From an uncultured bacterium (GTDB taxonomy: Bacteria > Babelota > Babeliae > Babelales > Babelaceae): DNA of 64,000 nucleotides. The stretch covers positions 768,001-832,000 of the forward strand of contig CAWKFG010000004.1 in NCBI GenBank assembly GCA_963848965.1, written 5' to 3'. A program made the translations under genes and the position numbers. The notes under the pieces are model-generated. The model searched no databases and had not been told where the DNA came from. It saw nothing but the letters and a program-made list of their open reading frames with translations. Shown in pieces: positions 15,698 to 44,778 of the stretch (position 1 is its first letter; each line of letters opens with the position of its first letter).

Positions 15698-18600
15698 TCA
15701 TTTTTTATCTGTTTTCTTTTTTATCTCATCTTTTAGAAGCTTGATAACGTGTTTATCCTTCCAAAACTCTGCAAGCTGCATAACATCTTGTCCTGTTGAG
15801 CATCTCAGTGATACATCAAGATGAGGAACTTTTAAAAGCATTTTTATTATCTCTAATTTATTTGCTCTATACTCGCTCATTATACCCTTATTTTTTTGTA
15901 TAAAAGTTTTCTTTGCTTCACTCAATATTTTATGAGGCTCAACTTGGCAAGCACTCATAAGCGGAGTTGCTTTTTGTGCATAGGTCTGAATATTAACATC
16001 TGCCTTATGAGCAAGAAGAAGTGCTGCTATTTCTTTGAGGCCCAGAGAACATGCATAATGTAAAGCAGTACAACCTGTATCATCTTGGCTATCAACAGAG
16101 GCTCCAGAATCAAGCAGAAGCTTAACCACCTCTGGTAAGTCATGTTGTACTGCCCATCCAAGTGCAGTACGTCTTAGATTATCAACTTTATTTACATCAG
16201 CTTTATGTTCAACTAAAAGCCGAACAACTGCTTCTCTTTGTGCCTTTGTAAGCACATCATGAGGAGCTGAACACATACATATGAGTGCTGTTCTTCCATC
16301 TCTTGCACTTATATTAGTATCTGCATTATGTGTAAGAAGAAGTTTCATAATAGAGGAGTGTCCATAACTACTTGCTACCATTAAAGCAGTTAATCCTTCA
16401 TTATTTTGCCTATTAACATCAGCATGATAGTCAAGCAAGAGTTTAACACGTACTTCATTATTATTCTGGCAGCATAGTATAAGAGGTGTGTTACCTTGCT
16501 CATTTGCGCAATTAACATTAGCCTTTTGCTCGAGTAACAACTGAGCTACTTCTTTGTGATTATGCTGACAAGCAAGTAACAAAGGAGTTGTTACTGGAGC
16601 TTCATTTGCAGTAAAGCGTAAAAGCGAAGAAAATAATCCTTGTCGTGGCAACGATCCATTAACACATGCTCCATTTTTAATGAGCATACGCGCAATCTCA
16701 GCGTTACCTGACCTTGCAGCCCCGTTAAGAGCAGTCTGCCCACTAGCAGTTACTGCATTACTATCTGCACCATAGTTTATAAGAAGACGCACCACTTCTG
16801 GATTAGGCTCTGGTAAATGACATGCAATTATAAGAGCAGTAATACCCTCTTTAGCTCTCTGATTTACGTCAGCACCATATTTAAGAAGCGTCTCAATAAT
16901 AGCGCTATCTACTTCTTGTAAAACAGCTTGCAGCAGTAGGGGATTACCAGTTGCTGGATCTACAATCATAGTATTTAAGTTTGGCTTTACTATCCCAAGA
17001 ATTTTCTTTAGATCATCAGCAGTACCGCCATAGAGACAAACAAGAGGTACTAATGCTGGAAGATTACTTTTATCAATACGGAGGAATTTATCATCTTTCA
17101 TAGTTCCATTACGCACAGCCTCTTGCATATGGGGGTCTTGCAATGAATCCTTAATCCTAGACACAAAAGTGAAAAAATGTTGTGCTAAAACGAATAAGAG
17201 GCTATCAGGAAATTCTTCAAAGCCTATGCAAACCTTATAGTTCCCTTCAAATACTGCATAAGTAAATAGTACCGACAAAGTATCCTTATGGTAATGATCT
17301 ACTATATAGTTCAAAGAATCAAATTCGGTATGTTTCATAAGATCTTGTAAAGGAACAGATATCCTCTTTAAAAGGTGTTCAAGAAGTTGTGGAGCACGAT
17401 TCTTTACCAAGGTAGCAAGAACATGCGCTTTAACTTTAAGAGAAAGCGATACAAAATCTATCTCTTTATCAAGAGCATCAAAAAGCGCTTGACTATTAGT
17501 GTGCGGTGCTTGACATACCTTCCCTAATAAAGCAGTTAACTGCTGCATTCCATAAACTTCAAGCAGCTTTTGGATACCGCTCGATATATGCTTTGTTATA
17601 GTAAATGCATTTTTGCTTTCGTGACTGCGCAGAAATACAGAAGCTCCTTTAACAAGAAGCTTTTCTACTAAAGATGCTTTACCACCTTGTATAGCTATTA
17701 TAAGAGCTGTTATACCTTTCTTATCTTGTTGATCTATAATAAGATCCTGCTTTGAAAGGAGTATAGCAACTGCTTCTTCATTATTACGCTCTACAGCAAC
17801 CATAAGCGCGGTTCTACCAAGAGGGTCACTATAGTTACTAGTAGTAGATCTATCTTTTTGAAGAGTCTCAACATCATTGCAATAAGCTGCAATCATTAAA
17901 GGTGAATAGCCCAGTCTTTGTAAGCGCTCTACTTCGCTTTTTTGTTCTTGCAAAAGCGTAGTACGCTGTTTTTCCTGTTTTGCATATTCTTCTTGGGTTA
18001 TATGCGATTGTAATTCTTTTAAAGCATTGCTATCAGCAGGTGCATAATTTATAGCAGTTTTACCAGAATTATCTTGCTCATGAAGTTGTAGACCTTTTTT
18101 ATAAAGGTAAGTAATAAGTGATGCATGATCTGATAGAGCTGCTATCATAAGAGCATTTTGACCTTTACCATTTTTGTATGGTAAAACAGAAGGATAGAAA
18201 GTAAGAAGCTGCTCAATGACAGGAAGTACATTATATCGTATTGCCTCTAAGAAGAGCTCTCCAGCCTGAGTCTGAGAAAAATTGATAACACGCTTTTCTA
18301 TAAAAGATAAAAAATATCCAAGAGAGCCTGCGTTTTGCAAAGCTTTTGTCAACGCATAGGGGTAATTAATACCGATGAATGCAAGAAGATTAGTATAATT
18401 TCCTCGTTGTTCTTTATACTGAACTTCGAGGAGTTTTAAGAACCATTCTTCAATAAGCTCTCTTTTTAGAGAGTGATGTTGTATGAGAGTTGAAAATATG
18501 CCTATATTTCTAGTAAATGCTAACGTAAGTGCTTCATGATATACTTCAGGAGCTCTCTGTAATGGTGCTTTTAACAACTGTTCTACAACAGTAGCTTTAC

Positions 18601-20155
18601 TCTCTTTTACCGCAAATAAGAATATTTTATTGAGTATTTTTTCTTCTAAAGAGTTCAATGCTTGTAACGATGAACGAGAGATAGTTCCTTTAAGAATTTC
18701 TTCTTTAAGAGTTTGAAGAAATACTTCTTGCTTTTTTTGTTGCTCTTTATGCTCTGCTAATGCTTTCTTTTCTTTCTCCTTCTCATGTAAAAGAGAAACT
18801 ATTTCTTGAATATTAAGCTGAGTAGCAAGCATATATGCTGTTTCTTCACGTTGGTTTCTTATTGTACAATAATCTGCTTGATGGTCTAATAAGCATTTTG
18901 CAAGCGAAACATTATGATGTGCAAGAGCATGCATAAGTGCAGTATATCCATCACTGTCTTGCGCATTTAACAAACTGCCCTTTTTTAACGTAGCTTCAAT
19001 AAAGGCTTTGCAAGCTTCTAGTTCTTCTTTTGCTAAAGTATGATGCTTAATTGCGTATATAAGAGGGGTACAACCATAATTATCAGAAGTGTTTACATCA
19101 GCACCAAGATAAAGCAACAGCTCTGCGATATCGTACAGCTTTCTTTGTAATGCTCTCATTAAAGGAGTTTCGCCCTTCTTATTCGCTTTATTAATGACAG
19201 CTTGATGTGCAAGCCCAAGAACGGCTTCATACACTTCAGAATCGATAGCATAATGTAACGCCGTATTTCCGACATTGTCTTGTTCCTCTAACAAAATCCC
19301 TCGCTCTAAAAATACATTAATAAGATCACATCTACCTGCTTGAGCTGCAAGCATTAAAGCAGTTTGACCTTTCTCATTTTTTACCTCTATAGCAGACTCT
19401 TCAAGAAGATCTATAACCGAGTAGAGTGAACAATCCTGTTGTGAAAGTATTTTAAATAGTTCTGTAGGCGTTTCTTGCTTATTCTCTCTTACGGTAAGAT
19501 TCTCAGCTCTTTGCTGTACGGCTATCGTTTCTAATGATCCCAAAAGTACTTTTTTTGTTTCTTTTACAATAGGATGAATGGTAAGAATATGAGTACGCAA
19601 GGACTTGTGAAGAACAAGTTTAAGAGGAACTCGTGCAAGATCGTACAGAGCTTTCATAGTAATAGAATAAGTATGTTCTGCTTGCGGTAACGGCATACTT
19701 TCATAAACGCTTTGTTCAGCTAATTCTTGTATATAGGTAGCAACAGCTTTTAAGCTCCAGGTAGAAGGGAAAAAGCTTTTTGGTTGAGCATATACCTTCC
19801 CTTGGTAGATTATATATCCAGTATGAAACGTAGAGATATCGTTGTACGTAAAAATCCAGAGATGTTTATTTACCTTAATAAGAGTTCCATTCAGTACCTC
19901 TTCTATCTTTGGGTTAGTATGTCCATAATAGTGAAATCCTGATATTTTATCATCTTTTTCAAAAGATACTCTTTGATATGTCGTAATATGTTTAAGCACA
20001 TCTTTTAGGGGTAAAATATAGTGATGGCCTCCTAAAGAAAGAGAAATGAGAGAGCTAAAGACATCTGAGCTCTTTTCAGGAGCTTGCATAGTATAGGTGC
20101 TAACACCTATACCTAAAGTGAGTAGAATAAGACAAAAAAAGCGTTGTATATGCAT
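15698..20155 (-). CDS. 1485-aa secreted ankyrin-repeat protein with N-terminal EndoU-like nuclease domain
   Basis: Signal peptide; LKHI...ISGFH...KSFFPSTWS...ILTIHPI; several blocks of GxTAL/TPL ankyrin repeats. Confidence 0.85.
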   Translation of the reverse strand: MHIQRFFCLILLTLGIGVSTYTMQAPEKSSDVFSSLISLSLGGHHYILPLKDVLKHITTYQRVSFEKDDKISGFHYYGHTNPKIEEVLNGTLIKVNKHLWIFTYNDISTFHTGYIIYQGKVYAQPKSFFPSTWSLKAVATYIQELAEQSVYESMPLPQAEHTYSITMKALYDLARVPLKLVLHKSLRTHILTIHPIVKETKKVLLGSLETIAVQQRAENLTVRENKQETPTELFKILSQQDCSLYSVIDLLEESAIEVKNEKGQTALMLAAQAGRCDLINVFLERGILLEEQDNVGNTALHYAIDSEVYEAVLGLAHQAVINKANKKGETPLMRALQRKLYDIAELLLYLGADVNTSDNYGCTPLIYAIKHHTLAKEELEACKAFIEATLKKGSLLNAQDSDGYTALMHALAHHNVSLAKCLLDHQADYCTIRNQREETAYMLATQLNIQEIVSLLHEKEKEKKALAEHKEQQKKQEVFLQTLKEEILKGTISRSSLQALNSLEEKILNKIFLFAVKESKATVVEQLLKAPLQRAPEVYHEALTLAFTRNIGIFSTLIQHHSLKRELIEEWFLKLLEVQYKEQRGNYTNLLAFIGINYPYALTKALQNAGSLGYFLSFIEKRVINFSQTQAGELFLEAIRYNVLPVIEQLLTFYPSVLPYKNGKGQNALMIAALSDHASLITYLYKKGLQLHEQDNSGKTAINYAPADSNALKELQSHITQEEYAKQEKQRTTLLQEQKSEVERLQRLGYSPLMIAAYCNDVETLQKDRSTTSNYSDPLGRTALMVAVERNNEEAVAILLSKQDLIIDQQDKKGITALIIAIQGGKASLVEKLLVKGASVFLRSHESKNAFTITKHISSGIQKLLEVYGMQQLTALLGKVCQAPHTNSQALFDALDKEIDFVSLSLKVKAHVLATLVKNRAPQLLEHLLKRISVPLQDLMKHTEFDSLNYIVDHYHKDTLSVLFTYAVFEGNYKVCIGFEEFPDSLLFVLAQHFFTFVSRIKDSLQDPHMQEAVRNGTMKDDKFLRIDKSNLPALVPLVCLYGGTADDLKKILGIVKPNLNTMIVDPATGNPLLLQAVLQEVDSAIIETLLKYGADVNQRAKEGITALIIACHLPEPNPEVVRLLINYGADSNAVTASGQTALNGAARSGNAEIARMLIKNGACVNGSLPRQGLFSSLLRFTANEAPVTTPLLLACQHNHKEVAQLLLEQKANVNCANEQGNTPLILCCQNNNEVRVKLLLDYHADVNRQNNEGLTALMVASSYGHSSIMKLLLTHNADTNISARDGRTALICMCSAPHDVLTKAQREAVVRLLVEHKADVNKVDNLRRTALGWAVQHDLPEVVKLLLDSGASVDSQDDTGCTALHYACSLGLKEIAALLLAHKADVNIQTYAQKATPLMSACQVEPHKILSEAKKTFIQKNKGIMSEYRANKLEIIKMLLKVPHLDVSLRCSTGQDVMQLAEFWKDKHVIKLLKDEIKKKTDKK

Positions 20156-20409: not shown

Positions 20410-22086
20410 TTATCCTTGGCTACCAAATTTAGGGTCCATCCAAGCTGTATTCCAATAGTGTGCTCCAATAGCTTGAGCTGGTATTTTACCATCTGGAGTT
20501 ACCACTTGTTTTTTTGGATATTCATCTGCCCGTGCAGGATAAATAGTTTGAGGAGGTAAAACTATATCTTGCGTATCCTTACCTGCTGCTAATGCAAATG
20601 CTATAGTAAACATAAAAGGACCTGTTTCAACAATAGTTTTAAACCCATTATTAGGTGCAGATTTTATGTAATCTGGAGCATTCTCGCTCAAGTTACGTTT
20701 GATCATTTCTAATGCCTTATTAACAACAGGATGATCAGGACAAGCTCCAATAAAGGCATTACATAAGTAGACCGACATAGGCTCTAGACCTACAATCATG
20801 TCATACGCCTTGCTATAGGGTAATAATGATTGGAATAGTTCATAATCGGTATCCAAATAATAGCCACCAAAAAGACGAAGCAACTCAAGACGAATAATAT
20901 CAGTAGCTTTACCGAATTTCTTCTCTTTAATTGCAGATTTATACAAGTCACCTGTTACAAATTTTGTTGTATCAAGGTCTTTCAATTCACGTAAGATAAT
21001 AGTTGGATGATTTTCAAGCAATTGTGCAAGCTTAGGTAACTTTTCTTTGCTTTCTATCCAGAAATAGTGAGTCCATCCCTCTGAAGGCATATTATGCTCA
21101 ATACTATTTTCAAGCCATTGAATATACTGAGGTGAAGGATCTTTTGGATTATCATCTGATGTTACCCAGATTTTATGAGTAACAAGAGGCGTTCTATATA
21201 CGGTAGAATCAAGCAAGTCTGGATCTTGCTTTAAAAGTGACGCAATGTTATTACGCGCATATAAAGTTTGTCTTTGTCGATCTATTTCAGCAAGACTGAG
21301 TCCCTCTTTGTGTCCCACAGAATCTGTGTAGTCATAGCTTCCATTAAATTCACGCCTAAATGCTTTTTCTTCATCTGAAATAGTAGGATCATTCAATTGT
21401 TCATCATTAAACTTCTTAGAAGTAAAATCAAAGTGATGATATTGATGAAGGAAATGACGATCTTGTACCATTTCAATATTTACTTGAAGATAGCTATCTT
21501 CAGTAAATTTAGGATTTAAAAAGAAGAGAGGATTATCGTCTACTGGCTTGATAGAACGAACAATAATACCATTCTGCTTTTCAAACACATACAACTCATA
21601 AGGCTTTATAGTAACTTCATCGCTCTTAAAGAAATCAGGTTTATCTTTAGCCTCATACTTTACTTTTAATGTAATTGATTCACTTGTTTTATTTTCAATA
21701 ACAAAACCATCTTCAATACGCAATTTCTTGATAAACGAATTAAAGTCTCTTCGAGCATCATAAAGAGCCTTTTGTGAGAGAATCATTTTCTTAAAGAGAT
21801 TTTTTTCAGATTCCTTCACATGCTTTAATTGAGGTTTTTTAGCTCGTATAAGCTCAAGAAAACTCTTAAGCTTTCCTTGCTTCTTTCTTTTAGATAGTTT
21901 CTTTTTAAAGTTTTTCTCGTGCTTTAACCGAAACCTTTCAGCTTTTGCACGCCTAAAAAAGCTCTTATGCTTTCCTTTCTTCTTTAGACCATGAGCCGGA
22001 GGTGTTTTATGTTTAATAGCTGCATGAGCTTCACACCCTCCAAATGTTAATAAAAGCAAATAGAATATTAAAAAAGATTTATTCAT
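20410..22086 (-). CDS. Secreted DxD glycosyltransferase (GT32/GT44-like) with Lys/Arg-rich N-terminus
   Basis: HKIWV, ATDIIRLELL..FGGYYLDTD, NAFIG, TGP, HYWNTAW. Confidence 0.85.
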   Translation of the reverse strand: MNKSFLIFYLLLLTFGGCEAHAAIKHKTPPAHGLKKKGKHKSFFRRAKAERFRLKHEKNFKKKLSKRKKQGKLKSFLELIRAKKPQLKHVKESEKNLFKKMILSQKALYDARRDFNSFIKKLRIEDGFVIENKTSESITLKVKYEAKDKPDFFKSDEVTIKPYELYVFEKQNGIIVRSIKPVDDNPLFFLNPKFTEDSYLQVNIEMVQDRHFLHQYHHFDFTSKKFNDEQLNDPTISDEEKAFRREFNGSYDYTDSVGHKEGLSLAEIDRQRQTLYARNNIASLLKQDPDLLDSTVYRTPLVTHKIWVTSDDNPKDPSPQYIQWLENSIEHNMPSEGWTHYFWIESKEKLPKLAQLLENHPTIILRELKDLDTTKFVTGDLYKSAIKEKKFGKATDIIRLELLRLFGGYYLDTDYELFQSLLPYSKAYDMIVGLEPMSVYLCNAFIGACPDHPVVNKALEMIKRNLSENAPDYIKSAPNNGFKTIVETGPFMFTIAFALAAGKDTQDIVLPPQTIYPARADEYPKKQVVTPDGKIPAQAIGAHYWNTAWMDPKFGSQG

Positions 22087-23275: not shown

Positions 23276-24019
23276 ATGAAACAGATACTACTTGCAATTC
23301 AGAATATTTCTAAAGCATATAATCATACTCTTGCAGTCAAAGATGTATCGCTTACTATTTACGAAGGTGAGATACTTGGTCTACTAGGCTCTAATGGAGC
23401 AGGAAAGACAACGCTTTCTTCACTTATTGCAACATTACATCCACCTACAAGCGGCACTATTTTGTATAAGGGCACTTCTATTTATAAAAATGTTCCTGCG
23501 TATCGAATGAATATTGGTTTCTGTCCACAAAAACCAAACTTTGATTCTACAATGACAGTAAAAGAAAATCTTCTTTTTGCAGGAAGATACTTTGGCCTCT
23601 CTTACGAGCAAACAGAGCAAAGAGTAGCATTTCTTATACAAGAGTTTGGTCTTAGTGCACATGCAGATAAGCAACCGGATGTGCTTTCAGGAGGATATAA
23701 ACAGCGGCTTCTTATTGCTAGAGCGCTGGTTCATAATCCTACTATTCTCATTCTTGATGAGCCTACTGTTGCTTTAGATCCACATGTACGCAGACAAGTA
23801 TGGAATTCTATTAAGCATCTTAAAATGCTTGGTATCACTGTTATTTTAACTACTCATTATTTAGATGAAGCAGAGTACCTTGCAGATAGGGTATGTATTA
23901 TGGATAAAGGGGTAATTAAAGTGATTGATACTCCTGAAAACTTGCTTTCTACTTATGGTAAAAAAACGTTAGAAGAAGTATTTATTGATTATATGGAAAA
24001 ACAAGAGGAACTCTCATGA
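23276..24019 (+). CDS. ABC exporter ATP-binding subunit (DrrA/NodI-like)
   Basis: GSNGAGKTT, LSGG, LILDEPT, TTHY. Confidence 0.95.
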   Translation: MKQILLAIQNISKAYNHTLAVKDVSLTIYEGEILGLLGSNGAGKTTLSSLIATLHPPTSGTILYKGTSIYKNVPAYRMNIGFCPQKPNFDSTMTVKENLLFAGRYFGLSYEQTEQRVAFLIQEFGLSAHADKQPDVLSGGYKQRLLIARALVHNPTILILDEPTVALDPHVRRQVWNSIKHLKMLGITVILTTHYLDEAEYLADRVCIMDKGVIKVIDTPENLLSTYGKKTLEEVFIDYMEKQEELS

Positions 24020-24801
24020 ATACAGTACAACCATTGAAAACCTTTAGATTTTTATTATGGCGCGATTTACGCCTATTAAGATCTGGTTTTATACACTATC
24101 TCATTGACACGCTTATATGGACAGGCTCTAATGTCATCATCAGTGGTTATTTATTACCTTTGCTTGGCATGGGCCGTTCATATGGTAATTTTATGCTTGT
24201 AGGATCAACTATTAGCATGTGCTTTTTTTATGCAATAAATAAAAGCCATGATCTTGTAGCTGATTTTGAAGGAAGTAAGAATATTACCTATGATCTTGTA
24301 CTTCCTATTGCTTCATGGGCAGTGTTCTTTAAAATAGCCCTGAGCTTTGCACTACAAGCAGCTCTTGTTAATATCTTAGCAATTCCTTTAGGCAAAATAC
24401 TTCTAGGAGAATCTCTGCATATGAGCTTATTTGCATGCAGTAAAGTGATAATGGTATTCAGCCTCATTGCCATTTTCCTTGGCTTCTTTGGTCTCTGGGT
24501 TGCAAGTTGGGTAAAGCATCCATCATTGTATCCTCATGTATGGATGCGCTTTATATTGCCTTTATGGGCTTTTGGCGGCTATCAGTTCTCTTGGTATACA
24601 CTCAAAGGTGCTTATCCTTTGATAGCGTATGCTAGCTTACTAAATCCAATGGTTTACACATTTGAAAGCCTCCGAGCAGTACTATTAGGACAAGAGGAAT
24701 ATATTCCATTAGCAGTATGTATTTTTATGCTTACTATGTTTACTCTCCTGCTTTGGGTTCATACATTGTATCTTTTAAAGAAACGGCTTGACTATATCTA
24801 A
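24016..24801 (+). CDS. ABC-2 type permease
   Basis: About six TM helices, LLNPMVY..ESLR; ATGA coupling to the ATPase. Confidence 0.88.
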   Translation: MNTVQPLKTFRFLLWRDLRLLRSGFIHYLIDTLIWTGSNVIISGYLLPLLGMGRSYGNFMLVGSTISMCFFYAINKSHDLVADFEGSKNITYDLVLPIASWAVFFKIALSFALQAALVNILAIPLGKILLGESLHMSLFACSKVIMVFSLIAIFLGFFGLWVASWVKHPSLYPHVWMRFILPLWAFGGYQFSWYTLKGAYPLIAYASLLNPMVYTFESLRAVLLGQEEYIPLAVCIFMLTMFTLLLWVHTLYLLKKRLDYI

Positions 24802-24803
24802 CT

Positions 24804-24833
24804 ACAGGGTAGGATCTTCCTACCCTGTTTTTT
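24804..24833 (+). terminator. Rho-independent terminator
   Basis: acagggtagga-tct-tcctaccctgt followed by a T run. Confidence 0.85.
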
Positions 24834-25705: not shown

Positions 25706-27493
25706 ATGCCTCTTATTGCAGGAGCATTTTTAAATCATCATAGTAACAGCTCTTCTCTTGTTCATACATTACTTACTTGTGCAGAATCTAAAATTACTCT
25801 TGATAAGCTTGTATTCACTTATACAAACCAAAGAATAGTTTTAGTAGCAGGTAAAAAAATGCATGAATCATCTGCTGAAAAAGTAATAAATATAGGCCAG
25901 GGATCTGGTATACTGCTTGGACGACTTTTTCAAAAAGGTACTAGTACATTAGTACAACACTTAGAAGAAGAGGAACTAGAGAAGATAAGAGAATCGCAAG
26001 GTAGATGGTTAAGTGAGCGGTACTGGGGCAGGTATCTTGTTATACTGCTAGATGAAGAGAGTATAACAATTTATAGAGACCCACTAGGAGGTATACCGCT
26101 CTTTATTACACAGACAGCTCAAGGAGTAGTGTTCTCTACAGAGCTCTCAATGCTCTATGATGCATTAGAAGAAAAGCCAGTACTTGATTGGACTTACTTT
26201 ACTTCCTATGTAGCAGCGTCATTTACGCTTACTACTGCAACGCCATTTAAAGGAATAGAAGAGGTATTTCCAGGCTCTTATGTAAGCATATCAGCAGAAG
26301 GGTATAAAACAGGTCTTTTTTGGGATCCAACACAGATAGATGTAAAAGAGGAGAAAGAGCTAGAGGAGCAAATACTTGAGACATTTTCAAGCTGTATAAA
26401 GGCATGGACACAAGAAACGGAAGGCATAGCACTAGAGCTATCAGGAGGTCTTGATTCTTCTGCTCTTCTTATACTATTAAAACAGGTAGCTCCTCGTATG
26501 AATATCACTTGTTTTAACTATTTTCATCCTCGTGTAGCTTCTTCTGATGAAAGAAACTATGCAGCGCATGTTGCTCAAGAGTGCAATGTAGAGCTTTATT
26601 GTATAGATCAAAGCCAAGTTTTACCTTTAAGCAGCAATTCAATTCATAAAACAAATAAACCAAGTTCATTTTTACTGCAGGAAGCTCTTAATAGAGAAAT
26701 TACTTCTTTGGTATCTAAAAAAGGTACTTATGAATTTATGAGCGGACAAGGGGGTGATCATCTTTTTCTTGCTCCTCCACTCGTTGAATCTCTGGCAGAT
26801 TATTTTCTTGATAACGGTATAAGAGGAATAAGCTCTAAACTTCATGAGATGTGTGCCTATTATCGAACACCATTCTTAAGCACAGTTGGCCAATCATTAA
26901 ACGCTTTAATTTCTTATTACAGAAGTAAAATAGATCGTATAATTGCAAACTCAGAGATAGAAGACTGGATGACTCCCTCTTTTTTAAGGAGTATAGATCA
27001 AACTATTTATCAACCGCCCTTTTGGAGACAATTAAAGCAAGTGTACCCAGCTAAAGCACAGCATATATACGATATGTACAGCGCACTCCTTTATACAGAT
27101 CAAGGGCATAGAATGGAAAGCAGACCTGTAATTAATCCGTTTTTATCGCAGCCATTTGTAGAACTTGCACTTTCTATTCCTACCTATCAGCTGTATAAAC
27201 AAGAGCATGACCGGTTTCCTTTTAGAAATGCAATAAGTAGAATAAGCACAGCACCAAGTATATGGCGTAAAGATAAAGGAGAAACTACAGGCATTAGCGT
27301 CTTTGCTCTCAATACAAACTATAAGTATATTTGTAAATTGTTGCTCGACGGTAAATTTGTGCAGCATAATCTTATTGATAAAGATAAACTCTATGACCAT
27401 ATCAACCATTGTAAAAATGGTAAATCGTTTAACTTATGGCCTCTTATGAATCTTATATCTGTCGAGCTCTGGTTTGATTCATGGAACCTATAA
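25706..27493 (+). CDS. Lasso cyclase C1 (asparagine synthetase-like)
   Basis: LELSGGLDSS, SGQGGDHLF, NPFL..PFVELALSIP, RFPFR, WRKDKG; lacks the N-terminal Cys of AsnB. Confidence 0.92.
   Translation: MPLIAGAFLNHHSNSSSLVHTLLTCAESKITLDKLVFTYTNQRIVLVAGKKMHESSAEKVINIGQGSGILLGRLFQKGTSTLVQHLEEEELEKIRESQGRWLSERYWGRYLVILLDEESITIYRDPLGGIPLFITQTAQGVVFSTELSMLYDALEEKPVLDWTYFTSYVAASFTLTTATPFKGIEEVFPGSYVSISAEGYKTGLFWDPTQIDVKEEKELEEQILETFSSCIKAWTQETEGIALELSGGLDSSALLILLKQVAPRMNITCFNYFHPRVASSDERNYAAHVAQECNVELYCIDQSQVLPLSSNSIHKTNKPSSFLLQEALNREITSLVSKKGTYEFMSGQGGDHLFLAPPLVESLADYFLDNGIRGISSKLHEMCAYYRTPFLSTVGQSLNALISYYRSKIDRIIANSEIEDWMTPSFLRSIDQTIYQPPFWRQLKQVYPAKAQHIYDMYSALLYTDQGHRMESRPVINPFLSQPFVELALSIPTYQLYKQEHDRFPFRNAISRISTAPSIWRKDKGETTGISVFALNTNYKYICKLLLDGKFVQHNLIDKDKLYDHINHCKNGKSFNLWPLMNLISVELWFDSWNL
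25976..26494 (+). repeat. About 0.5-kb block in C1 repeated near-identically, inverted, in C2 (29345-29860)
   Basis: Direct nucleotide comparison; few substitutions and one codon indel. Confidence 0.9.
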
Positions 27494-27494
27494 A

Positions 27495-27650
27495 CTACAT
27501 GCCCTTTGGTTTAAAATAACCATAATTTTCTGCACATGGTGTTGCTTTACCTAAGGTATATTCTGAAACTTTTGCAAGCTCTGTGATAAGGGCAGCTTTC
27601 TGATCTTCCATAATCTTTACAATTGGCTTTTGCTTTGTATTTTCTTCCAT
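27495..27650 (-). CDS. Lasso precursor A4 (51 aa; core GKATPCAENYGYFKPKGM)
   Basis: Hand translation MEENTKQKPIVKIMEDQKAALITELAKVSEYTL|GKATPCAENYGYFKPKGM; AGGAGG RBS; Thr-2, Gly1, Glu8. Confidence 0.85.
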   Translation of the reverse strand: MEENTKQKPIVKIMEDQKAALITELAKVSEYTLGKATPCAENYGYFKPKGM

Positions 27651-27680
27651 AGTTTTTCCTCCTCTTATAGAATTACTTGT

Positions 27681-27711
27681 AGCAGAAGTAGATTTTATAT
27701 CTACTTCTGCT
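27681..27711. terminator. 13-bp perfect hairpin between precursors A3 and A4
   Basis: agcagaagtagat-tttat-atctacttctgct. Confidence 0.6.
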
Positions 27712-27716
27712 TACAT

Positions 27717-27863
27717 TTACCGTATTTGTCTTCCTATATTTTCTGCAAGTCTACCACTTTTTCCTAAGGTAGTTTTTGAAACAGTGCCTATCTCTGTAAT
27801 AAGAGTAACTTTAGAAGATACCTTTTGCTTTTTACGAAAGCACCAATTACTAAGTATTTTCAT
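27717..27863 (-). CDS. Lasso precursor A3 (48 aa; core GKSGRLAENIGRQIR)
   Basis: MKILSNWCFRKKQKVSSKVTLITEIGTVSKTTL|GKSGRLAENIGRQIR; AGAGGAG RBS before ATG 27863; Gly-8, Thr-2, Gly1, Glu8. Confidence 0.88.
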   Translation of the reverse strand: MKILSNWCFRKKQKVSSKVTLITEIGTVSKTTLGKSGRLAENIGRQIR

Positions 27864-27961
27864 AAGACCTTCTCCTCTATTTATAAAGTGAAACAATGTA
27901 TAGCACATGCAAAAACCATATATACTAATCTTGTACATCAAACTTTTGTAGCTTTTGCTTA

Positions 27962-28132
27962 CTAATTATCTTTTAATGGAGGCCAATAAGTGCGTTTAAA
28001 AGTTTTTTGAAGGCTCTCTAAGTATTTTCCGCCTCTGCCCAGAGTAATTTTTGAAACAGCTCCTAACATTTCAATAGGAGACACCTTATAGGAGGCATCT
28101 TTTTTATTAATGAATATAATAGATCTTTTCAT
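27962..28132 (-). CDS. Lasso precursor A2 (56 aa; core GRGGKYLESLQKTFKRTYWPPLKDN)
   Basis: Hand translation MKRSIIFINKKDASYKVSPIEMLGAVSKITL|core; AAGGAG RBS; Tyr-17, Gly-8, Thr-2, Gly1, Glu8. Confidence 0.9.
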   Translation of the reverse strand: MKRSIIFINKKDASYKVSPIEMLGAVSKITLGRGGKYLESLQKTFKRTYWPPLKDN

Positions 28133-28160
28133 AGGTGTTTCTCCTTACTCTAAACAATAT

Positions 28161-28337
28161 TTATACAGGGTTCCAAGGATGTTTCTTAAAGGTCCTTCGA
28201 AGACTTTCTAAATATTTTCCTCCTCTACCTAAAGTAAGCCTTGAAACGTTTCCTAACATTTCAACAGCAGATACTTTGTAAGAAGCACTTTTCTGTTGAA
28301 CGCAACCTGTTGTGTGTAAATGTTTTTTCTTTTGCAT
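28161..28337 (-). CDS. Lasso precursor A1 (58 aa; core GRGGKYLESLRRTFKKHPWNPV)
   Basis: Hand translation MQKKKHLHTTGCVQQKSASYKVSAVEMLGNVSRLTL|core; AAGGAGGT RBS; starts 17 nt after cyclase C2. Confidence 0.9.
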   Translation of the reverse strand: MQKKKHLHTTGCVQQKSASYKVSAVEMLGNVSRLTLGRGGKYLESLRRTFKKHPWNPV

Positions 28338-28354: not shown

Positions 28355-30112
28355 TTAAGAGATATTCCATGTTTTAAACCATAGTTCTGTAGAAAGTAAA
28401 TTTATTAATGGCCCTATATTTACTGGGCTACTATGACACCATTGATTAATATACGTATAAAGTTTATCTTTATCAATGAGATTATGTTGCACAAATTTAC
28501 CTTCAAACAAGAGCTCACATATCTGCTTATACTGAACATTAAAAGCATAGATAGTAACTGCAGTTGTATCCCCTTTATCTTTACGCCATATATTTGGTGC
28601 CTTACTTATCCTACTTATCGCATTTCTAAAAGGGAATCGGTCATGTTCCTGCTTATACAGCTGATAGGTAGGAATAGAAAGCGCAAGCTCAACAAGCGGT
28701 TGAAATAAAAATGGGTTAATTACCGATTTACCTGGTATTCTTTGTACCTTATCCACAGTAACAAGTGCATCATAGAGCGAAACTATATGAGAAAGCTTAC
28801 CTGGATATATTTTAGTATTATCGTGCAAAAAAAGCGTATCATTCTTTACTTGCTCCATAAAAGCGCTATTCATCCAATGTTCACGCTCTAAAGATGCAAG
28901 AAGATGCCTTTTATGTGAAGTATAGTAACGCATTATCTCCATACCTGTATCTTTTATAACTTGTATAAGCGACATTCGATAATAAGCTGCTATCTCAGAT
29001 ATTTTAGAGCTTATTCCTCGTGTACCGCGAATAAAAAAATAATCTGCAAGAGATTCAACAAGTGGAGGTGCAAGAAAAAGGTGGTCCCCTCCATGCCCAC
29101 TCATAAATTCACAGTTCTTCTGAGCAACTAAAGCAGCAGTATGCTTACACATTGCTTCTTCTAATAACAAAGGATGAGGCTTACTAGCTCTTAATTGAGG
29201 AAGCATACTCAATGATATATGCTCACTCAAATCTATACAATGCAGTTCTGCATCACATTCCTGAGCAACTTGAGTTGCATAGTTTCTTTCATCAGAAGAA
29301 GCTACTCGAGAGTGAAAGTAATTAAAGCACGTGATAGGTAGAGTAGGAGCTACCTGTTTGAGCAGTATAAGAAGAGCAGAAGAATCAAGACCTCCTGATA
29401 GCTCTAGTGCTATGCCTTCTGTTTCCTGTGTCCATGCCTTTATACAGCTTGAAAACGTCTCAAGTATTTGCTCCTCTAGTTCTTTCTCCTCTTTTACACC
29501 TATCTGTGTTGGATCCCAAAAAAGACCTGTTTTATACCCTTCTGCTGTTATGCTTACATAAGAGCCTGGAAATACCTCTTCTATTCCTTTAAACGGAGTT
29601 ACTGTAGTAAGAAAATCTGCTGCTACATAGGAGGTAAAGTAAGTCCAGTCAAGTACTGGCTTTTCTTCTAATGCATCATAGAGCATTGAGAGCTCTGTAG
29701 AGAACACTACTCCTTGAGCTGTCTGTGTAATAAAGAGTGGTATACCTCCTAGTGGGTCTCTATAAATTGTTATACTCTCTTCATCTAGCAGTATAACAAG
29801 ATACCTGCCCCAGTACCGCTCACTTAACCATCTACCTTGCGATTCTCTTATCTTTTCTAGCTCCCATTCTTCAAGATTTTCTTTAAGAACTGAGCTTCCC
29901 TTTTCAAAAAGTCGGCCTATAAGCATTCCAGTAGTATGGGTAAAGACCTTGAGCTTTTCGGCAGAAGATTCTTCATTTCTCACCCCACTTTGTATGATAA
30001 AGTTATAGTTTTCTACCGTTGCCCACTGCTTACAAAGCTCTTTAGTAACCGGGTTAATTGACAATGTACGAGCAGTTTTTTCCTTTAAAAAAGCCCCTAG
30101 TAATAAAGGCAT
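28355..30112 (-). CDS. Lasso cyclase C2 (asparagine synthetase-like), paralog of C1
   Basis: LELSGGLDSS, SGHGGDHLF, NPFL, WRKDKG; no N-terminal Cys. Confidence 0.92.
   Translation of the reverse strand: MPLLLGAFLKEKTARTLSINPVTKELCKQWATVENYNFIIQSGVRNEESSAEKLKVFTHTTGMLIGRLFEKGSSVLKENLEEWELEKIRESQGRWLSERYWGRYLVILLDEESITIYRDPLGGIPLFITQTAQGVVFSTELSMLYDALEEKPVLDWTYFTSYVAADFLTTVTPFKGIEEVFPGSYVSITAEGYKTGLFWDPTQIGVKEEKELEEQILETFSSCIKAWTQETEGIALELSGGLDSSALLILLKQVAPTLPITCFNYFHSRVASSDERNYATQVAQECDAELHCIDLSEHISLSMLPQLRASKPHPLLLEEAMCKHTAALVAQKNCEFMSGHGGDHLFLAPPLVESLADYFFIRGTRGISSKISEIAAYYRMSLIQVIKDTGMEIMRYYTSHKRHLLASLEREHWMNSAFMEQVKNDTLFLHDNTKIYPGKLSHIVSLYDALVTVDKVQRIPGKSVINPFLFQPLVELALSIPTYQLYKQEHDRFPFRNAISRISKAPNIWRKDKGDTTAVTIYAFNVQYKQICELLFEGKFVQHNLIDKDKLYTYINQWCHSSPVNIGPLINLLSTELWFKTWNIS
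29345..29860 (-). repeat. Inverted copy of 25976-26494
   Basis: Reverse complement matches the C1 block. Confidence 0.9.
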
Positions 30113-30155: not shown

Positions 30156-31586
30156 CTACAGTAAGTTATATCTTACAAGAGCAAGATCAAACCACTTACC
30201 ATTAAAAGAGTCACCCGCAACTATCACTTTTCCATTCTCTTGCAGTGCTATAGCAAAACTTCTATCATCACCCCCTCTTAAGGAGGTAACCAGTATGCCA
30301 TCGTTGGAAGTACCAAAAGTAGTATCCAGCATCCCTTCAGATGTATAGCGCACAAGGGTAAACTTTTTATGCTTATCCCACTGCACTACCCCGGTAATGA
30401 GTATTTTACCATCTTTTTGTAATACTACACTTTTAGCAAAAGCATTATCAGTACCTAATGGAGTTAAAACTATACCAGTACGACTTTTTCCAAATGTAGT
30501 ATCGGGTGACCCATCTACATTGTACCTCACAAGAAGAAATTCCGCTTTCTGGCTAGTTGTGTTTTTTGCAGAACCTATGGCAAGAATTTTGCCATCTGGC
30601 TGTATTATAACGTCTACAAAAAAATTACATTCTCTACTTGCGGATGTTATGACCATTCCACTTTTATCAGGAGCAAAAGAAGTATCAAGATTTCCATGAG
30701 AATCATATTGTACAATCGCACAATCTGAACTTGCTGACGCAGCCAGAGCAAGATCCCCAAATGAGGTACAATCATCGCTTAACCCTACAACTACGATCTT
30801 CCCACCTTGTTGTAAAGCTGCTGCTAGAGCCTCATCATCTTCCTTACCTATAACTCTGGGCTTAGGTCTCTTGTTTACCTGCAAGATAGTCTTTACATGC
30901 CCCTTTGTTCCAAAAGATATATCAGGAGTTCCATCACTATTATAGCGACTTACAAAGAAGCTACAGTTTATAGCATCCAATGACTCTGGACCTTTATTAA
31001 GGCCTTGGTTTCCTACAGCAATAATTTTTCCATCGTCTTGTAGCACAACTTTAAAATAGTTAGACCAGCTCTTTCCTAGTTTTTCTTTTATTACTCCACC
31101 GCAGCCAAAGGAGCTATCTAAGTTTCCATTTGGATGTAATCTCAAAAGGCCTGCATTACCAAAACCATCATCTCGGTCAAATATTCTTATTACTGCAATA
31201 ATTTTACCATCTTTTTGTACAAGACAATCAATACCAAAAAGCTGAGTATTACTTTGACCAAGAGTTATCAACATTTTACCTCCTAAACCAAAAGAGGTAT
31301 CTAGAGTCCCATTACTATTATAGCGCGCTAAAGCACAAGCAACCCCAGTTGGTTTATTAGTAAAATCCTTATAGGCATCCCCTATTACAAGTATTTTGCC
31401 ATCTTGCTGCACTCTTACATGAATTGAAGGTACTATTTTGTTCACAGTTCCTGAATTCATACCAAAACTGGTCGTAACGATTCCATTATCACCAAAGGTT
31501 TTATCTAAAAGACTCTTAGTTTCCTCCATAGCCTTTATGTATAATGAAATAAAGAGAGAAAGTACAAAAAGCTGTCGTATATTCAT
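30156..31586 (-). CDS. Secreted delta-60 repeat (beta-propeller) protein
   Basis: Repeated Q.DGKI.V.G and RY..DG.LDTSFG..G units; signal peptide. Confidence 0.88.
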   Translation of the reverse strand: MNIRQLFVLSLFISLYIKAMEETKSLLDKTFGDNGIVTTSFGMNSGTVNKIVPSIHVRVQQDGKILVIGDAYKDFTNKPTGVACALARYNSNGTLDTSFGLGGKMLITLGQSNTQLFGIDCLVQKDGKIIAVIRIFDRDDGFGNAGLLRLHPNGNLDSSFGCGGVIKEKLGKSWSNYFKVVLQDDGKIIAVGNQGLNKGPESLDAINCSFFVSRYNSDGTPDISFGTKGHVKTILQVNKRPKPRVIGKEDDEALAAALQQGGKIVVVGLSDDCTSFGDLALAASASSDCAIVQYDSHGNLDTSFAPDKSGMVITSASRECNFFVDVIIQPDGKILAIGSAKNTTSQKAEFLLVRYNVDGSPDTTFGKSRTGIVLTPLGTDNAFAKSVVLQKDGKILITGVVQWDKHKKFTLVRYTSEGMLDTTFGTSNDGILVTSLRGGDDRSFAIALQENGKVIVAGDSFNGKWFDLALVRYNLL

Positions 31587-41812: not shown

Positions 41813-43360
41813 ATGACAAAAATCTTAATATATATAGGTTTAATAAATACTTCATTTTCCTTTTCTTTAGCTATGGAAAAAGAACAAAAATCTCTCTATT
41901 CAAAGTTTACTCTATTTTCAACAAAAAAGACGGATAATGCTCAAGATGATAGTGCTCGTACACCCTTAATGAATGCCGCAAAAGAGGGCAATAAGGAAAA
42001 AGTAGAAACATTATTAACCTACGAAGCACATGTTAACTCTCAAGATACTAAAGGTCGTACCGCCTTAATGCTTGCTGCAATTGATGGACATAAAGAAATA
42101 GTAGAAACACTGATAGCTCATAGGGCAGACGTTAACATACAAGATAACAAAGGTGGCACTGCCTTATATTGGGCTGCAGTTGATGGTCAAAAAGAAGTAG
42201 TAAAACTACTCTTAAATAGTGGCGCTGATAGTAATATCCCAGATAGCAATGGAGCAACTGCTTTAATGTATACTGCAGGGCAACATTATAAAGAAATAAT
42301 AGAAATGCTTATTATCCATGGCACTTCTGTTAGTGCTCAAAATAGCTATAACAATACTGCCCTGCATTGGGCTGCAACCCATAATCAACCAGAGGTAGCA
42401 GAGTTGCTTATAACTTACGGTGCCCATGTTAATGCTCAAAATGAGGGGGGCGGAACACCATTAATGGCTGCTGCCGTAAATGGAAATGTGGAAGTACTTG
42501 CTGTACTTTTAGATAATGGTGCTAATCCGAATGATGGAGCGACTGATGATTATCACATATTGGCTTTGGCTGCAAAAGAAGGTCATTTCAACGTAGTAAC
42601 TGCACTTTTAGAAAGAGGTGCTTCTATTAATACCCAAAGTATTTATAGGAAAACTGCCTTAATATACGCTGCAGAATATGGACACAAGGAAATAGTAGCT
42701 CTTCTTATACAAAAAGGCGCTAATATTACTACTAAAGACGTTCGTGGATTCGATGCCTTGACAGCCGCAAAAGAAGGCGATACTCGTCAATTATTAGAAC
42801 TTTGCACATTACAAGAAGTAAAAACTTACCTTATTAATCCACTAGAGTATATTAAAAGAGATAGCAATAGATTTACCACAATTGGTAAAGGACAAACATG
42901 GCTCATGGTTGCATGTATCTATGGTCACGCTGATGTTATAGCTTTTTACAAGGACTACTCTCCTGACTATATTAATATAAAAGATCAGTATGGGCTCACT
43001 GCTCTTGACTATGCTTGTAAGTATAATATTGATAGCGCCGCTATTTTGATTAATACTTTGGGTAAAAAAATTAACCAATTAAATCTACAGCAAACGTTCT
43101 TCACCACTCTTACCTCTTATATCCCCTATTTTAATACCAATAAAAAGAATGAGCTTCTTAATCTTGCTGTAGAAAGGGGATATTTGCCACTCGTTAACGC
43201 TCTTTTAAGTATAGGAGCACAACCTACTATAGAGCTTGCTCAAAAAGCTCAAGAAAAAGGTTATTTAAAAATAATGCTTAGACTTCTCTTTTTAACCCTT
43301 GCTTCTACCCCTAAATATAAAAGAGAACCCTATAATTCGCTCAGTGGTCTTTTTAAGTAA
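41813..43360 (+). CDS. Secreted ankyrin-repeat protein, family paralog 1
   Basis: Signal peptide, ankyrin repeats, shared C-terminal module ending REPYNSLSGLFK. Confidence 0.92.
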   Translation: MTKILIYIGLINTSFSFSLAMEKEQKSLYSKFTLFSTKKTDNAQDDSARTPLMNAAKEGNKEKVETLLTYEAHVNSQDTKGRTALMLAAIDGHKEIVETLIAHRADVNIQDNKGGTALYWAAVDGQKEVVKLLLNSGADSNIPDSNGATALMYTAGQHYKEIIEMLIIHGTSVSAQNSYNNTALHWAATHNQPEVAELLITYGAHVNAQNEGGGTPLMAAAVNGNVEVLAVLLDNGANPNDGATDDYHILALAAKEGHFNVVTALLERGASINTQSIYRKTALIYAAEYGHKEIVALLIQKGANITTKDVRGFDALTAAKEGDTRQLLELCTLQEVKTYLINPLEYIKRDSNRFTTIGKGQTWLMVACIYGHADVIAFYKDYSPDYINIKDQYGLTALDYACKYNIDSAAILINTLGKKINQLNLQQTFFTTLTSYIPYFNTNKKNELLNLAVERGYLPLVNALLSIGAQPTIELAQKAQEKGYLKIMLRLLFLTLASTPKYKREPYNSLSGLFK

Positions 43361-43371
43361 TTTACTAGACA

Positions 43372-43623
43372 CTAGTCCTCAACGTCAACATCGTTAATTT
43401 CGTGCTTAAGGAGCGTCTGAAAGTAACGTTGAGATAGGTCATCTTGCGATAGTACTTTAAGAAACCAATCAGGAAATTGTTTGATACCTGCTTCTACTAA
43501 CTCTTTAAAGTTTGTAGTTGCACATTCAAAATCAAAGTCAGGAATAGGTACATCAGAATGAGAAAAATGTATTAATTCGCCAAGAGAATAGTCTTTCCAT
43601 GCAACTTGGTATAGAAGTTTAAT
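43372..43623 (-). pseudogene. Open frame without a standard start (IKLLYQVAWKDYSLGE...DVDVED), possible gene remnant
   Basis: 84 codons including the stop in AT-rich DNA; the nearest ATG is out of frame. Confidence 0.35.
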
Positions 43624-43649
43624 TCATAAGACTAGAGCATTGAAAAATT

Positions 43650-43672
43650 AAGGCCTAGCAAGTCTAGGCCTT
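43650..43672 (-). terminator. Conserved aaggcctag/ctaggcctt hairpin after family-X gene
   Basis: Recurs at 48938-48961 and 49933-49954. Confidence 0.7.
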
Positions 43673-43688
43673 CATATACTTACTACTT

Positions 43689-44549
43689 TTATTTGATTAT
43701 CGGACACCTAACTTCAGAATATTTCCGTCGTGATTTTTCAAACAATCTACGAGCATACTCGTCAAATTTATCATAATCCGTACCGTCTCTTAAAGCTCTT
43801 GTTGCAGTATTAATAAGGTTAAGCATCTCGTTTTGCTCAAGTAATCCAGTCTCTTTAGTGATATATTCTGCAGCACTCCAACCAGCTATTAAATCAGCCT
43901 GAGCCTTATCTACAGATAAATTAAAATCTCTACCACTTTTTGTTGGTTTAGCAGGAACTCCCAAAATATATTCCGGCTTTATAGGTTCTTTCTTTGGTTC
44001 CTTTGATAAAAAGGCTTCTCTTGCACGTACAAATATATCTCCAAGTAACTTGCAGCTATCAAGAGGTATAACAGCACCAATATTACTACTACCGATATTA
44101 CTGATGTCAATCGCCTTAAAATCAACACTGTAAGGTATAAAGCTAGATCCAGATAATGTCATTTCTACACCAAAAGCGTTCCGCCCCTTCTCTTTCATAG
44201 TATTTTTTATCCTTTCAGCATAGTCTTCTGTCTTTAAGAATCCTAAACTCCATACTTCAGGATCTGTATATTGCCATCCTACACCATGAGGACTTAATTT
44301 AAGTGAAGTAATTGCTTCTAGACCGTTAATCCAAATAACTTCTTCTGGATATATAACTCGACGGAGATTCGCGCCTCTAAATTGTTCCTTAAGATATTGA
44401 TACGTTACAACCACTGCGTCTGGCCTTTTATTTCTTATGAAAAGTCTTGCTTCATCACGAGGTTCTGGTTGCATACCATATACAGTAAAAGCTATACCTA
44501 CGCAGAACATATTTATTATAAATAGAAACTTTTTCATATTTTCTCCCAA
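43689..44549 (-). CDS. Secreted hypothetical protein family X (degenerate J-domain-like C-terminus), paralog 1
   Basis: Signal peptide; RLFIRN, YPEEVIWI, LGDIF.RA, PEYILGVP shared with paralogs. Confidence 0.8.
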   Translation of the reverse strand: MGENMKKFLFIINMFCVGIAFTVYGMQPEPRDEARLFIRNKRPDAVVVTYQYLKEQFRGANLRRVIYPEEVIWINGLEAITSLKLSPHGVGWQYTDPEVWSLGFLKTEDYAERIKNTMKEKGRNAFGVEMTLSGSSFIPYSVDFKAIDISNIGSSNIGAVIPLDSCKLLGDIFVRAREAFLSKEPKKEPIKPEYILGVPAKPTKSGRDFNLSVDKAQADLIAGWSAAEYITKETGLLEQNEMLNLINTATRALRDGTDYDKFDEYARRLFEKSRRKYSEVRCPIIK

Positions 44550-44749
44550 TTTTACAGTTATATTTATATTAATTATAATTGTATATAAGAAGTATAATCA
44601 AGAGTTCTATCTTCTACTAAAGAACAGTTGCTTTAAAAAGACTTGATTAAAGGCTTTTATTGAGCTTGGCAAAGAAGATTGATAAGAGGATAAAGATACG
44701 TTTAAGATAAAAAGCTTTTTCTTGCGTTTGGTTTCTATCTGAAATTTAA

Positions 44750-44778
44750 TTGACAGTCATTAATTTTAGGGCTACTAT
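44750..44778 (+). promoter_or_regulatory. Conserved promoter of ankyrin paralog 2
   Basis: TTGACA-N17-TACTAT within about 80 bp similar to 41636-41715. Confidence 0.75.

Follow-up and report, generated by a model that had tools for sequence, protein, structure and literature searches.

A probable fused-B lasso peptide gene cluster with two diverged cyclases and four precursors in a Dependentiae genome

The stretch of DNA analyzed here, termed the window, comprises 64 kb (positions 768,001 to 832,000 of contig CAWKFG010000004.1, assembly GCA_963848965.1) and contains a set of genes that we read, with moderate confidence, as a true lasso peptide gene cluster of the fused-B ("proteobacterial") type in a genome of the Dependentiae (TM6). 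Four precursor open reading frames (ORFs) on the minus strand fill positions 27495-28337 and are bracketed by two convergent cyclase genes, C1 and C2, and a single gene for a fused leader peptidase, B, is located directly upstream of C1. The precursors fall into two pairs, termed class I and class II. The unusual part of the locus is its two-cyclase architecture with a tract of gene conversion; the absence of the canonical leader motif YxxPxL, pointed out in an earlier sequence-only reading, was correctly observed but is ordinary. Gene content, the leader motif, the evolutionary pattern of the cyclases and a model of B with a leader are the direct results on which this account is built.

All four precursors possess Thr at leader position -2 and Gly and Glu at core positions 1 and 8, as expected of lasso precursors, and each ORF is preceded by a strong Shine-Dalgarno match. 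Entries of exactly 58, 56, 48 and 51 aa correspond to them in the protein collection. The third one most likely starts at the internal ATG at 27863, which has the best ribosome-binding site and gives 48 aa; a longer, TTG-started ORF reaches 27941. A motif built solely from the precursors of related loci was found four times in the six-frame translation of the window, exactly at the precursor ORFs, and not once in 100 shuffles, so that these ORFs are not due to chance. No Pfam family was matched by any of the four, and NCBIfam returned for one of them only a sub-threshold match to the albusnodin family (14 bits, cut-off 30). Compared as profiles with 5.8 billion clusters, in a search that requires shared 5-residue words and can miss distant relatives, the precursors retrieved no sequences other than themselves.

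The two peptide classes are real. Eight of the eight ring residues are identical within class I and four of eight within class II, as compared to 2-3/8 between the classes. The class I genes form a 107-nt direct repeat with 76% identity at the DNA level, and the first ten core residues of their products are identical and the tails differ. Class I has cores of 22-25 residues and Gly-rich rings typical of the clade, and class II has cores of 15-18 residues with rings that carry an atypical Ala7-Glu8-Asn9, position +7 being mostly F, W, I, L or Y in the clade. The ORF translations bear out what the sequence-only reading had described, namely a shared leader stretch and identical rings with variable tails in class I, and, in both distal (class II) peptides, the pattern LITE...VS..TL in the leader followed by GK....AEN.G in the core. 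Likewise, no leader has Pro at -14, where A, T, S and S are found, and Tyr-17 is missing from class II, which has Q and S at this position. Tyr is present at -17 in both class I leaders, Pro occurs at -13 in one of them, and position -12 is occupied by I, I, I and V; the YxxPxL arrangement of Tyr-17, Pro-14 and Leu-12 was thus found in no window leader.

Instead of YxxPxL, all four leaders share a hydrophobic residue at -12, L or I at -9, G or A at -8, V at -6, S at -5, T at -2 and L at -1, the sole deviation being Ala for Gly at -8 in the class II precursor at 27495-27650. The same signature was found among 52 candidate precursors located beside B and C in 16 close loci, from which the motif was derived: I, V or L at -12 (45/52), L or I at -9 (48/52), G at -8 (46/52), A or V at -6 (51/52) and S or T at -5 (50/52), with L at -3 and -1 in 32 and 31 sequences, respectively. 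Glu was found at +8 in 44 precursors and at +9 in 8 more; Thr-2, Gly1 and an acidic residue at +8 to +10 are not independent observations, because they were imposed as search criteria. The leaders of the relatives are 13-56 residues long, several having only 15 residues. A Y..P spacing occurs anywhere in only one of 56 leaders (the 52 relatives and the four of the window). In the 52 related precursors, Tyr falls outside the six most frequent residues at -17 and hence occurs there at most 3 times; judging from this comparison, the Tyr-17 of class I is probably coincidental.

The YxxPxL motif spans positions -17 to -12 (PMC10368454), and PMC6784204 already distinguishes actinobacterial leaders with YxxPxL from proteobacterial ones with I/V/LxxxA. 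For microcin J25, the last eight leader residues suffice, and in an AlphaFold2 model residues -12 to -10 pair with beta3 of the RiPP (ribosomally synthesized peptide with post-translational modifications) recognition element (RRE) of the fused McjB (PMC11420955). The absence of YxxPxL is a known trait of lasso systems with a fused B, of proteobacterial type (PMC6784204, PMC11420955). The missing Pro-14 is therefore expected for this fused-B cluster, and the lack of YxxPxL is ordinary and no peculiarity of the window locus.

A profile of the precursors identified 234 representative proteins at E ≤0.001 among 1.84 billion, which argues for a real, as yet unnamed precursor family with short leaders. 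Among the 147 short representatives listed, the nearest match the window peptides at only 5-6 of the first 10 core residues. A side observation concerns the architecture of these proteins (P0245-P0392): of the 147 short ones listed, 54 have two complete leader-core units per ORF and one (P0245, 111 aa) has three, and multi-unit precursors are also encoded at L014:11665-11892 and in L003 around 3125-3612. To our knowledge, multi-cassette lasso precursors have not been described before. An upstream core in such a protein would retain the next leader as a tail unless trimmed.

B has an RRE-like domain at its N-terminus (about residues 1-95) and, at its C-terminus, a Cys protease of the transglutaminase-like type, and is recognized by Pfam Transglut_core3 (E 1.2e-16, 61.1 bits, cut-off 26) and NCBIfam lasso_biosyn_B2 (67.7 bits, cut-off 33). 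Cys185, His217 and Asp229 are invariant in 21 homologs, as are several residues of the N-domain, and B is thus predicted to possess the Cys-His-Asp triad of a leader peptidase. In the structure model of B (predicted local distance difference test score, pLDDT, 90.2), the best local matches of the N-domain include TbiB1 (5v1v) and TfuB1 (6jx3), with probabilities of 1.00 and 0.99 and template modeling scores by target of 0.64 and 0.65, respectively; both structures were solved with their leaders. According to this model, B would provide the RRE that is characteristic of lasso clusters.

A model of the complex, which the sequence-only reading had proposed as a check, was obtained for B (21-row alignment) and the most deviant precursor, that of class II at 27495-27650 (55-row alignment). 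It scored 0.76, as compared to 0.11 for the best of three controls. This mark is reached by 116 of 157 solved complexes and by 2 of 215 mismatched pairs, counts that apply only roughly because custom alignments were used for both partners; as the leader complexes of TbiB1 and TfuB1 have already been solved, the pass may also reflect likeness to them. At least 67% of the contacts are common to the runs, and the partner has a pLDDT of 51 or more. On the precursor, the interface is formed by residues 21-29 and 31-36, corresponding to positions -13 to -5 and -3 to +3, and on B by residues 19-35 (RRE), 136-141, 184-186 and 214-218, the latter two around Cys185 and His217; Thr-2 adjoins B residues 186 and 216. 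The footprint coincides with the independently derived leader motif. Since the four leaders share this motif and the modeled interface lies on it, we conclude that no unusual tolerance is required for a single B to serve all of them. The proposal of a single B for all four is thus supported by motif and model, and the special tolerance invoked along with it is unnecessary, given that the motif is the ordinary one of the clade.

Both cyclases are Asn-synthetase-like and contain a PP-loop, as expected of lasso cyclases. Pfam Asn_synthase was matched at E 5.2e-21 (76.1 bits) by C1 and at E 5.6e-20 (72.7 bits) by C2, the cut-off being 21 bits, and the PP-loop residues S246, G247, G248, D250 and S251 are invariant across 38 homologs, both copies included. 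The model of C1 has a pLDDT of 92.1, and its nearest solved folds are TsnB9, beta-lactam synthetase and AsnB.

The two enzymes are 65% identical overall (384/595), and this identity is distributed very unevenly. In C1 numbering, it amounts to 34% for residues 1-88, 96% for 89-260, 78% for 261-300, 34% for 301-345, 80% for 346-380, 29% for 381-470, 82% for 471-530 and 57% for 531-595, so that the divergence at the N-terminus and in C-terminal parts noted from the sequence alone can be assigned to residues 1-88, 301-345 and 381-470 (29-34%). The central part corresponds to an inverted repeat, in which 254 nt are identical at 97% and 381 nt at 90%; two stretches, of 116 and 89 nt, match exactly on either side of one mismatch. 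Synonymous divergence (dS, Nei-Gojobori) is 0.144 for codons 89-260, 0.64-1.04 in the conserved segments 261-300, 346-380 and 471-530, and at least 1.1 or saturated in the divergent ones. Nonsynonymous divergence (dN) is 0.10-0.14 in the three conserved segments, giving a dN/dS of about 0.09-0.2 that is rough because dS outside the tract is near saturation, and 0.5-0.8 in the three divergent ones. The low dS of the central tract as compared to the remainder argues that only this tract results from recent gene conversion and that the likeness elsewhere reflects constraint. The possibility that all similarity between C1 and C2 is due to recent conversion was considered and is ruled out by the dS of 0.64-1.04 in segments 261-300, 346-380 and 471-530.

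A tree of the divergent partition only (41 sequences, 287 columns, quick IQ-TREE) has the topology (C2,(C1,P0002)), with support values of 98 and 96 in the Shimodaira-Hasegawa-like approximate likelihood ratio test (SH-aLRT). P0002 is a metagenome ortholog of C1, to which it is 73% identical, uniformly so along the segments (59-83%). The topology indicates that the duplication is specific to this lineage and older than the split of C1 and P0002; the two cyclases are thus, as far as can be deduced from these alignments, an old lineage-specific inverted duplication. A transfer of C2 from a distant cluster was also considered and is ruled out, C2 being sister to (C1, P0002) even on the divergent partition. 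The window cyclases lie in a sister clade otherwise known only from metagenome proteins. Since the duplication node, 0.97 changes per column have accumulated in C2 and 0.49 in C1. C1 keeps all of the 52 columns that are at least 90% conserved, and C2 keeps 50, namely 40/40 of the core and 10/12 of the divergent partition. The ORF of C2 is full-length, without frameshift or stop, and the nonsynonymous proportion of differences (pN) is well below the synonymous one (pS) in every segment. Both cyclases hence look functional and under purifying selection, with C2 the fast-evolving copy. The same segments in which C1 and C2 differ are those in which C1 and its ortholog P0002 are least conserved (59, 67 and 68%).

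In the mechanism that we infer, including catalysis, the activity of both cyclases and any split of substrates, the leader would dock as an added strand on the N-terminal RRE of B via its shared positions -12 to -1, and B would cut after Leu-1 using Cys185, His217 and Asp229. A cyclase would then adenylate Glu8 and join it to Gly1 to form an 8-residue ring, and the predicted products are four lasso peptides that are cationic and have 15-25 residues in the core. The central 0.64 kb of both cyclases was homogenized recently by gene conversion, and C2 has diverged about twice as fast as C1, in its N-terminal 88 residues and in helical C-terminal segments. The coordinates of all features are compiled in Table 1.

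Table 1. Features of the lasso peptide locus and its immediate surroundings in the window
Feature	Position	Strand	Basis
ABC ATPase (23276-24019) and ABC-2 permease (24016-24801)	23276..24801	+	Pfam; cluster membership uncertain
B, fused lasso leader peptidase, 251 aa	24927..25682	+	Pfam, NCBIfam, structure model
C1, lasso cyclase, 595 aa, Asn-synthetase-like, PP-loop SGGLDS	25706..27493	+	Pfam Asn_synthase
Gene-conversion tract in C1	25964..26608	+	Inverted repeat with 29231-29872
Precursor class II, 51 aa (33-aa leader, 18-aa core, Gly1-Glu8 ring, Ala at -8)	27495..27650	-	
RNA hairpin between the two class II genes	27678..27715	-	Folding energy versus shuffles
Precursor class II, 48 aa (33-aa leader, 15-aa core, Gly1-Glu8 ring)	27717..27863	-	
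Precursor class I, 56 aa (31-aa leader, 25-aa core, Gly1-Glu8 ring)	27962..28132	-	
Precursor class I, 58 aa (36-aa leader, 22-aa core, Gly1-Glu8 ring)	28161..28337	-	
C2, second lasso cyclase, 585 aa, upstream of the precursors on their strand	28355..30112	-	Pfam Asn_synthase
Gene-conversion tract in C2	29231..29872	-	Partner arm of 25964-26608

Whether such a locus requires two cyclases can be judged from its relatives. When one genome per species was scanned for cyclases, 88 relatives were confirmed and 80 loci retained, the window's own genome not being among them. Those closest to the window are 32-36% identical (best tblastn segment) and belong to Dependentiae/Babeliales metagenome-assembled genomes (MAGs), one Rhabdochlamydiaceae, one Megaera (Rickettsiaceae) and unclassified MAGs. 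Two full-length cyclases within 10 kb to either side were found in none of the 80 loci; L024 has a weak second cyclase match of 311 aa at a distance of 8.8 kb. The single-cyclase loci carry 1-8 precursors. In L006 there are eight, whose median ring identity is 1.5/8 and whose rings comprise either 8 or 9 residues, and L020 and L021 have six each, the cores of L021 comprising 17-26 residues, as compared to a between-class ring identity of 2-3/8 and cores of 15-25 residues in the window. Relatives with one cyclase thus encode precursors that are at least as diverse, and two cyclases are not needed for the diversity seen in the window. No orthologous two-class cluster was found among the genome loci or the precursor profile matches.

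Several of these loci have features of their own. In L014:7990-11491 the cyclase is split, a 78-aa N-terminal fragment following directly after B and the remainder being located about 1.7 kb downstream, which suggests an insertion within the gene. L012 contains three precursors and a cyclase and lacks B, even as a fragment, within 10 kb to either side, and L004, in the same MAG (MFD10064.bin.2.104), has a B, a C and two precursors, the leaders of which are atypical in carrying D or E at -8; provided that this MAG is complete, one B may act in trans for two cyclases. Among metagenome proteins, the cyclase pairs P0014/P0032 (32% identity) and P0023/P0042 (60%) have equal longest-contig sizes and overlapping sources, and each pair includes one protein that is cut short as if by the end of a contig. 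There may thus be more contigs with two cyclases, although the inference of a shared contig is weak because another pair of equal size is impossible (3279 nt for two genes of about 1.8 kb). Related B-C clusters are present in MAGs labeled Rhabdochlamydiaceae and Megaera (Rickettsiaceae), and a second subclade was found in MAGs labeled Methylococcaceae, Chlorobiaceae and Phycisphaerales, the loci concerned in all being L011, L019, L013, L015 and L017. This taxonomic range suggests horizontal spread, partly among intracellular bacteria of protists.

As to the reason for keeping two cyclases, we consider overlapping or partly specialized use of the two enzymes more likely than a clean assignment of one cyclase to each class. 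The latter, in which a shared B would supply two cyclases each restricted to one precursor class, follows the sequence-only reading, in which each cyclase prefers one class; it is plausible but unsupported, and we regard it as rather unlikely. Both cyclases are intact, the divergence of C2 is asymmetric (dN 0.5-0.8 in three segments) around a conserved catalytic core, and there are two distinct peptide classes, of which class II has the atypical Ala at +7; the MAG with L012 and L004 may be an analog, and the two metagenome cyclase pairs may share contigs. However, L006 and L021 encode equally or more diverse precursors beside a single cyclase, and the segments that differ between C1 and C2 may simply evolve fast, being the least conserved ones also between C1 and P0002. 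In addition, the heuristics for pairing conflict, adjacency assigning C2 to class I and typicality assigning the conservative C1 to class I, no orthologous cluster was found in which co-occurrence could be seen, and the argument from shared contigs rests only on equal contig sizes. The inverted cyclases around the precursor cassette might tentatively be seen as a natural specificity module, in which a single B supplies two cyclases that have divided the four precursors between them, conversion keeps the half with the N-domain and PP-loop the same, and the N-terminal 88 residues and the helical C-terminal segments diverge so as to fit different cores, but this, too, we hold to be doubtful.

Another reading is that of a regulatory or dosage duplication, in which both cyclases accept all four precursors, C1 being expressed with B and C2 with the precursors or an upstream beta-propeller gene, and gene conversion reflects selection for sameness. 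The predicted placement of the cyclases in separate convergent transcription units, the tract that keeps 172 codons 96% identical at the protein level and the apparent tolerance of the clade's cyclases for diverse precursors are consistent with it; an identity of 29-34% outside the tract is more divergence than selected sameness would predict, and the transcription units are unproven, as the promoter scan gave 22 sites, below the mean of 32.2 in shuffles. We take this joint reading to be possible but not probable. More improbable still is that C2 is decaying or not catalytic (a chaperone-like or inactive paralog, for instance) and that C1 carries out all cyclizations. It would explain why C2 has the longest branch in its subclade (0.97), why it has lost G572 and W578, two residues kept by at least 90% of 39 relatives, why only 30 of 45 moderately conserved columns of the divergent partition are matched (36 for C1) and why there is no C2 ortholog among 231 homologs, but it is difficult to reconcile with an uninterrupted full-length ORF, the retention of all 40 conserved core columns including the PP-loop, the low pN relative to pS in every segment and the presence of a class I precursor gene only 17 nt past the C2 stop. 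Finally, recombination across the near-perfect 206-nt inverted repeat could invert a segment of about 3.4 kb and make this a switchable RiPP locus, an idea to which we give very little credence; if true, the C-terminal halves of the cyclases would be swapped and the precursors moved onto the strand of B and C1.

Several observations weigh against the reading of the locus as a lasso cluster with two working cyclases. The NCBIfam model NF033535 scores 84.9 bits for C1 and 81.9 bits for C2, far below its curated cut-off of 525; for NF033561 the values are 118.9 and 108.4 bits (cut-off 300). The fold match of B to RREs is weak (E 0.019-0.063), none reaching E 0.001, and the Pfam PqqD/RRE model gives no match on B. 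The 64-kb window encodes no fused ABC (ATP-binding cassette) protein, which leaves export or immunity unaccounted for. C2 has lost two conserved residues (in C1 numbering, G572S and W578G), the length of its branch may point to relaxed constraint, and dS outside the tract, being close to saturation, limits what can be concluded on selection there. Furthermore, the precursors of the relatives are predictions, and their processing by one cyclase is an assumption.

The missing transporter deserves comment, as a fused ABC protein of 575-668 aa was found in 14 of 22 close loci, recognized there by the similarity of its nucleotide-binding domain and its length only. A tblastn search with three of these proteins against the 64-kb window revealed similarity in the nucleotide-binding domain only. 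The exporter D of the microcin J25 type, in which transmembrane and nucleotide-binding domains are fused, is thus absent from the cluster, and its neighbor is a two-gene ABC-2 type system, the ATPase of which matches Pfam ABC_tran; the permease scores 20.9 bits with Pfam ABC2_membrane, under the cut-off of 26.9. A terminator-like hairpin at 24804-24828 (plus strand; 11-bp stem with 6 G-C pairs, followed by a T-run) is located right after the permease stop and before B, and orthologs of this ATPase and permease in L010 and L002 sit 4-7 kb from the lasso genes of these loci.

A distance of 17 nt separates the C2 stop from the start of the class I precursor at 28161-28337, and the stops of C1 and of the last precursor (27495-27650) are only 1 nt apart, so that two units converge without a spacer. 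The hairpin at 27678-27715, which begins 2 nt past the stop of the upstream class II gene, has a 13-bp perfect core stem and a folding energy of -23.3 kcal/mol (z -5.18; none of 200 shuffles as stable). As it is not followed by a U-tract, it resembles an element of RNA stability or processing more than a terminator. An Rfam scan of the whole window, which has a G+C content of 35.7%, gave no match.

The surroundings of the cluster contain further genes. A 476-aa protein with DUF5122 beta-propeller repeats (E 3.1e-42) is encoded at 30156-31586 on the minus strand and ends 43 nt upstream of C2; a counterpart was found in none of the 80 related loci. The 558-aa protein encoded at 20410-22086 (minus strand) contains a DXD sugar-binding glycosyltransferase region (26.7 bits, cut-off 23) and a sub-threshold match to the TcdA/TcdB glycosyltransferase domain (17 bits, cut-off 23.6), and on this basis has the look of a glycosyltransferase effector that an intracellular bacterium would secrete. 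The window is rich in ankyrin-repeat proteins, encoding at least five (coordinates including 15698-20155, 41813-46579, 51094-52491 and 62832-63914), and a PilM-like gene followed by two tandem secretin genes (GspD/PilQ-like) is located at 2128-6999 on the plus strand. The ankyrin-repeat proteins and secretin genes fit a host-dependent lifestyle. Of the 120 matches listed for the window's enolase, the four that carry names all come from Candidatus Dependentiae, Babeliaceae or Babela massiliensis (59-68% identity), so that the bacterium is most likely a member of the Dependentiae (TM6).

Among characterized systems, microcin J25 (McjA/B/C/D) is similar in its fused RRE-protease B, its eight-residue Gly1-Glu8 ring and its Thr-2, and, according to PMC11420955 and PMC6784204, in that only the C-terminal part of the leader matters and YxxPxL is absent. 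The window differs in having two cyclases, four precursors, a Dependentiae host and no fused ABC exporter, and in a leader consensus that includes G-8 and S/T-5. The split B1/B2 systems of fusilassin (TfuB1) and therbactin (TbiB1) share with the window the RRE fold and the logic of leader strand and Thr-2, whereas their leaders are of the YxxPxL type and their B is split, that of the window being fused. The loci of Dependentiae/Babeliales (L001-L012, L014, L018, L020 and L021) have the same leader motif and ring chemistry and 1-8 precursors, and in the 15 of them that contain B (L012 does not) this protein is 34-42% identical to that of the window; all of them, however, have a single cyclase.

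In proteobacterial multi-precursor clusters such as those of the caulonodins, several precursor genes are served by one B and one C, a single cyclase acting on all of them; the window differs from them by its second, divergent cyclase. In the literature searched, we found neither a report of lasso peptides from Dependentiae nor one of a two-cyclase lasso cluster.

Should both cyclases simply act on every precursor, this would be a lasso cluster of the ordinary multi-precursor sort in which one gene has been duplicated. The determinants of substrate specificity in lasso cyclases are a question for engineering, and the window offers a natural pair of paralogs that are nearly identical over 172 codons, about 30% identical in three defined segments and located beside two kinds of substrate, which makes them ready for the construction of chimeras. 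Beyond this locus, the analysis documents a sizeable, unnamed family of lasso precursors centered on obligate intracellular bacteria of protists.

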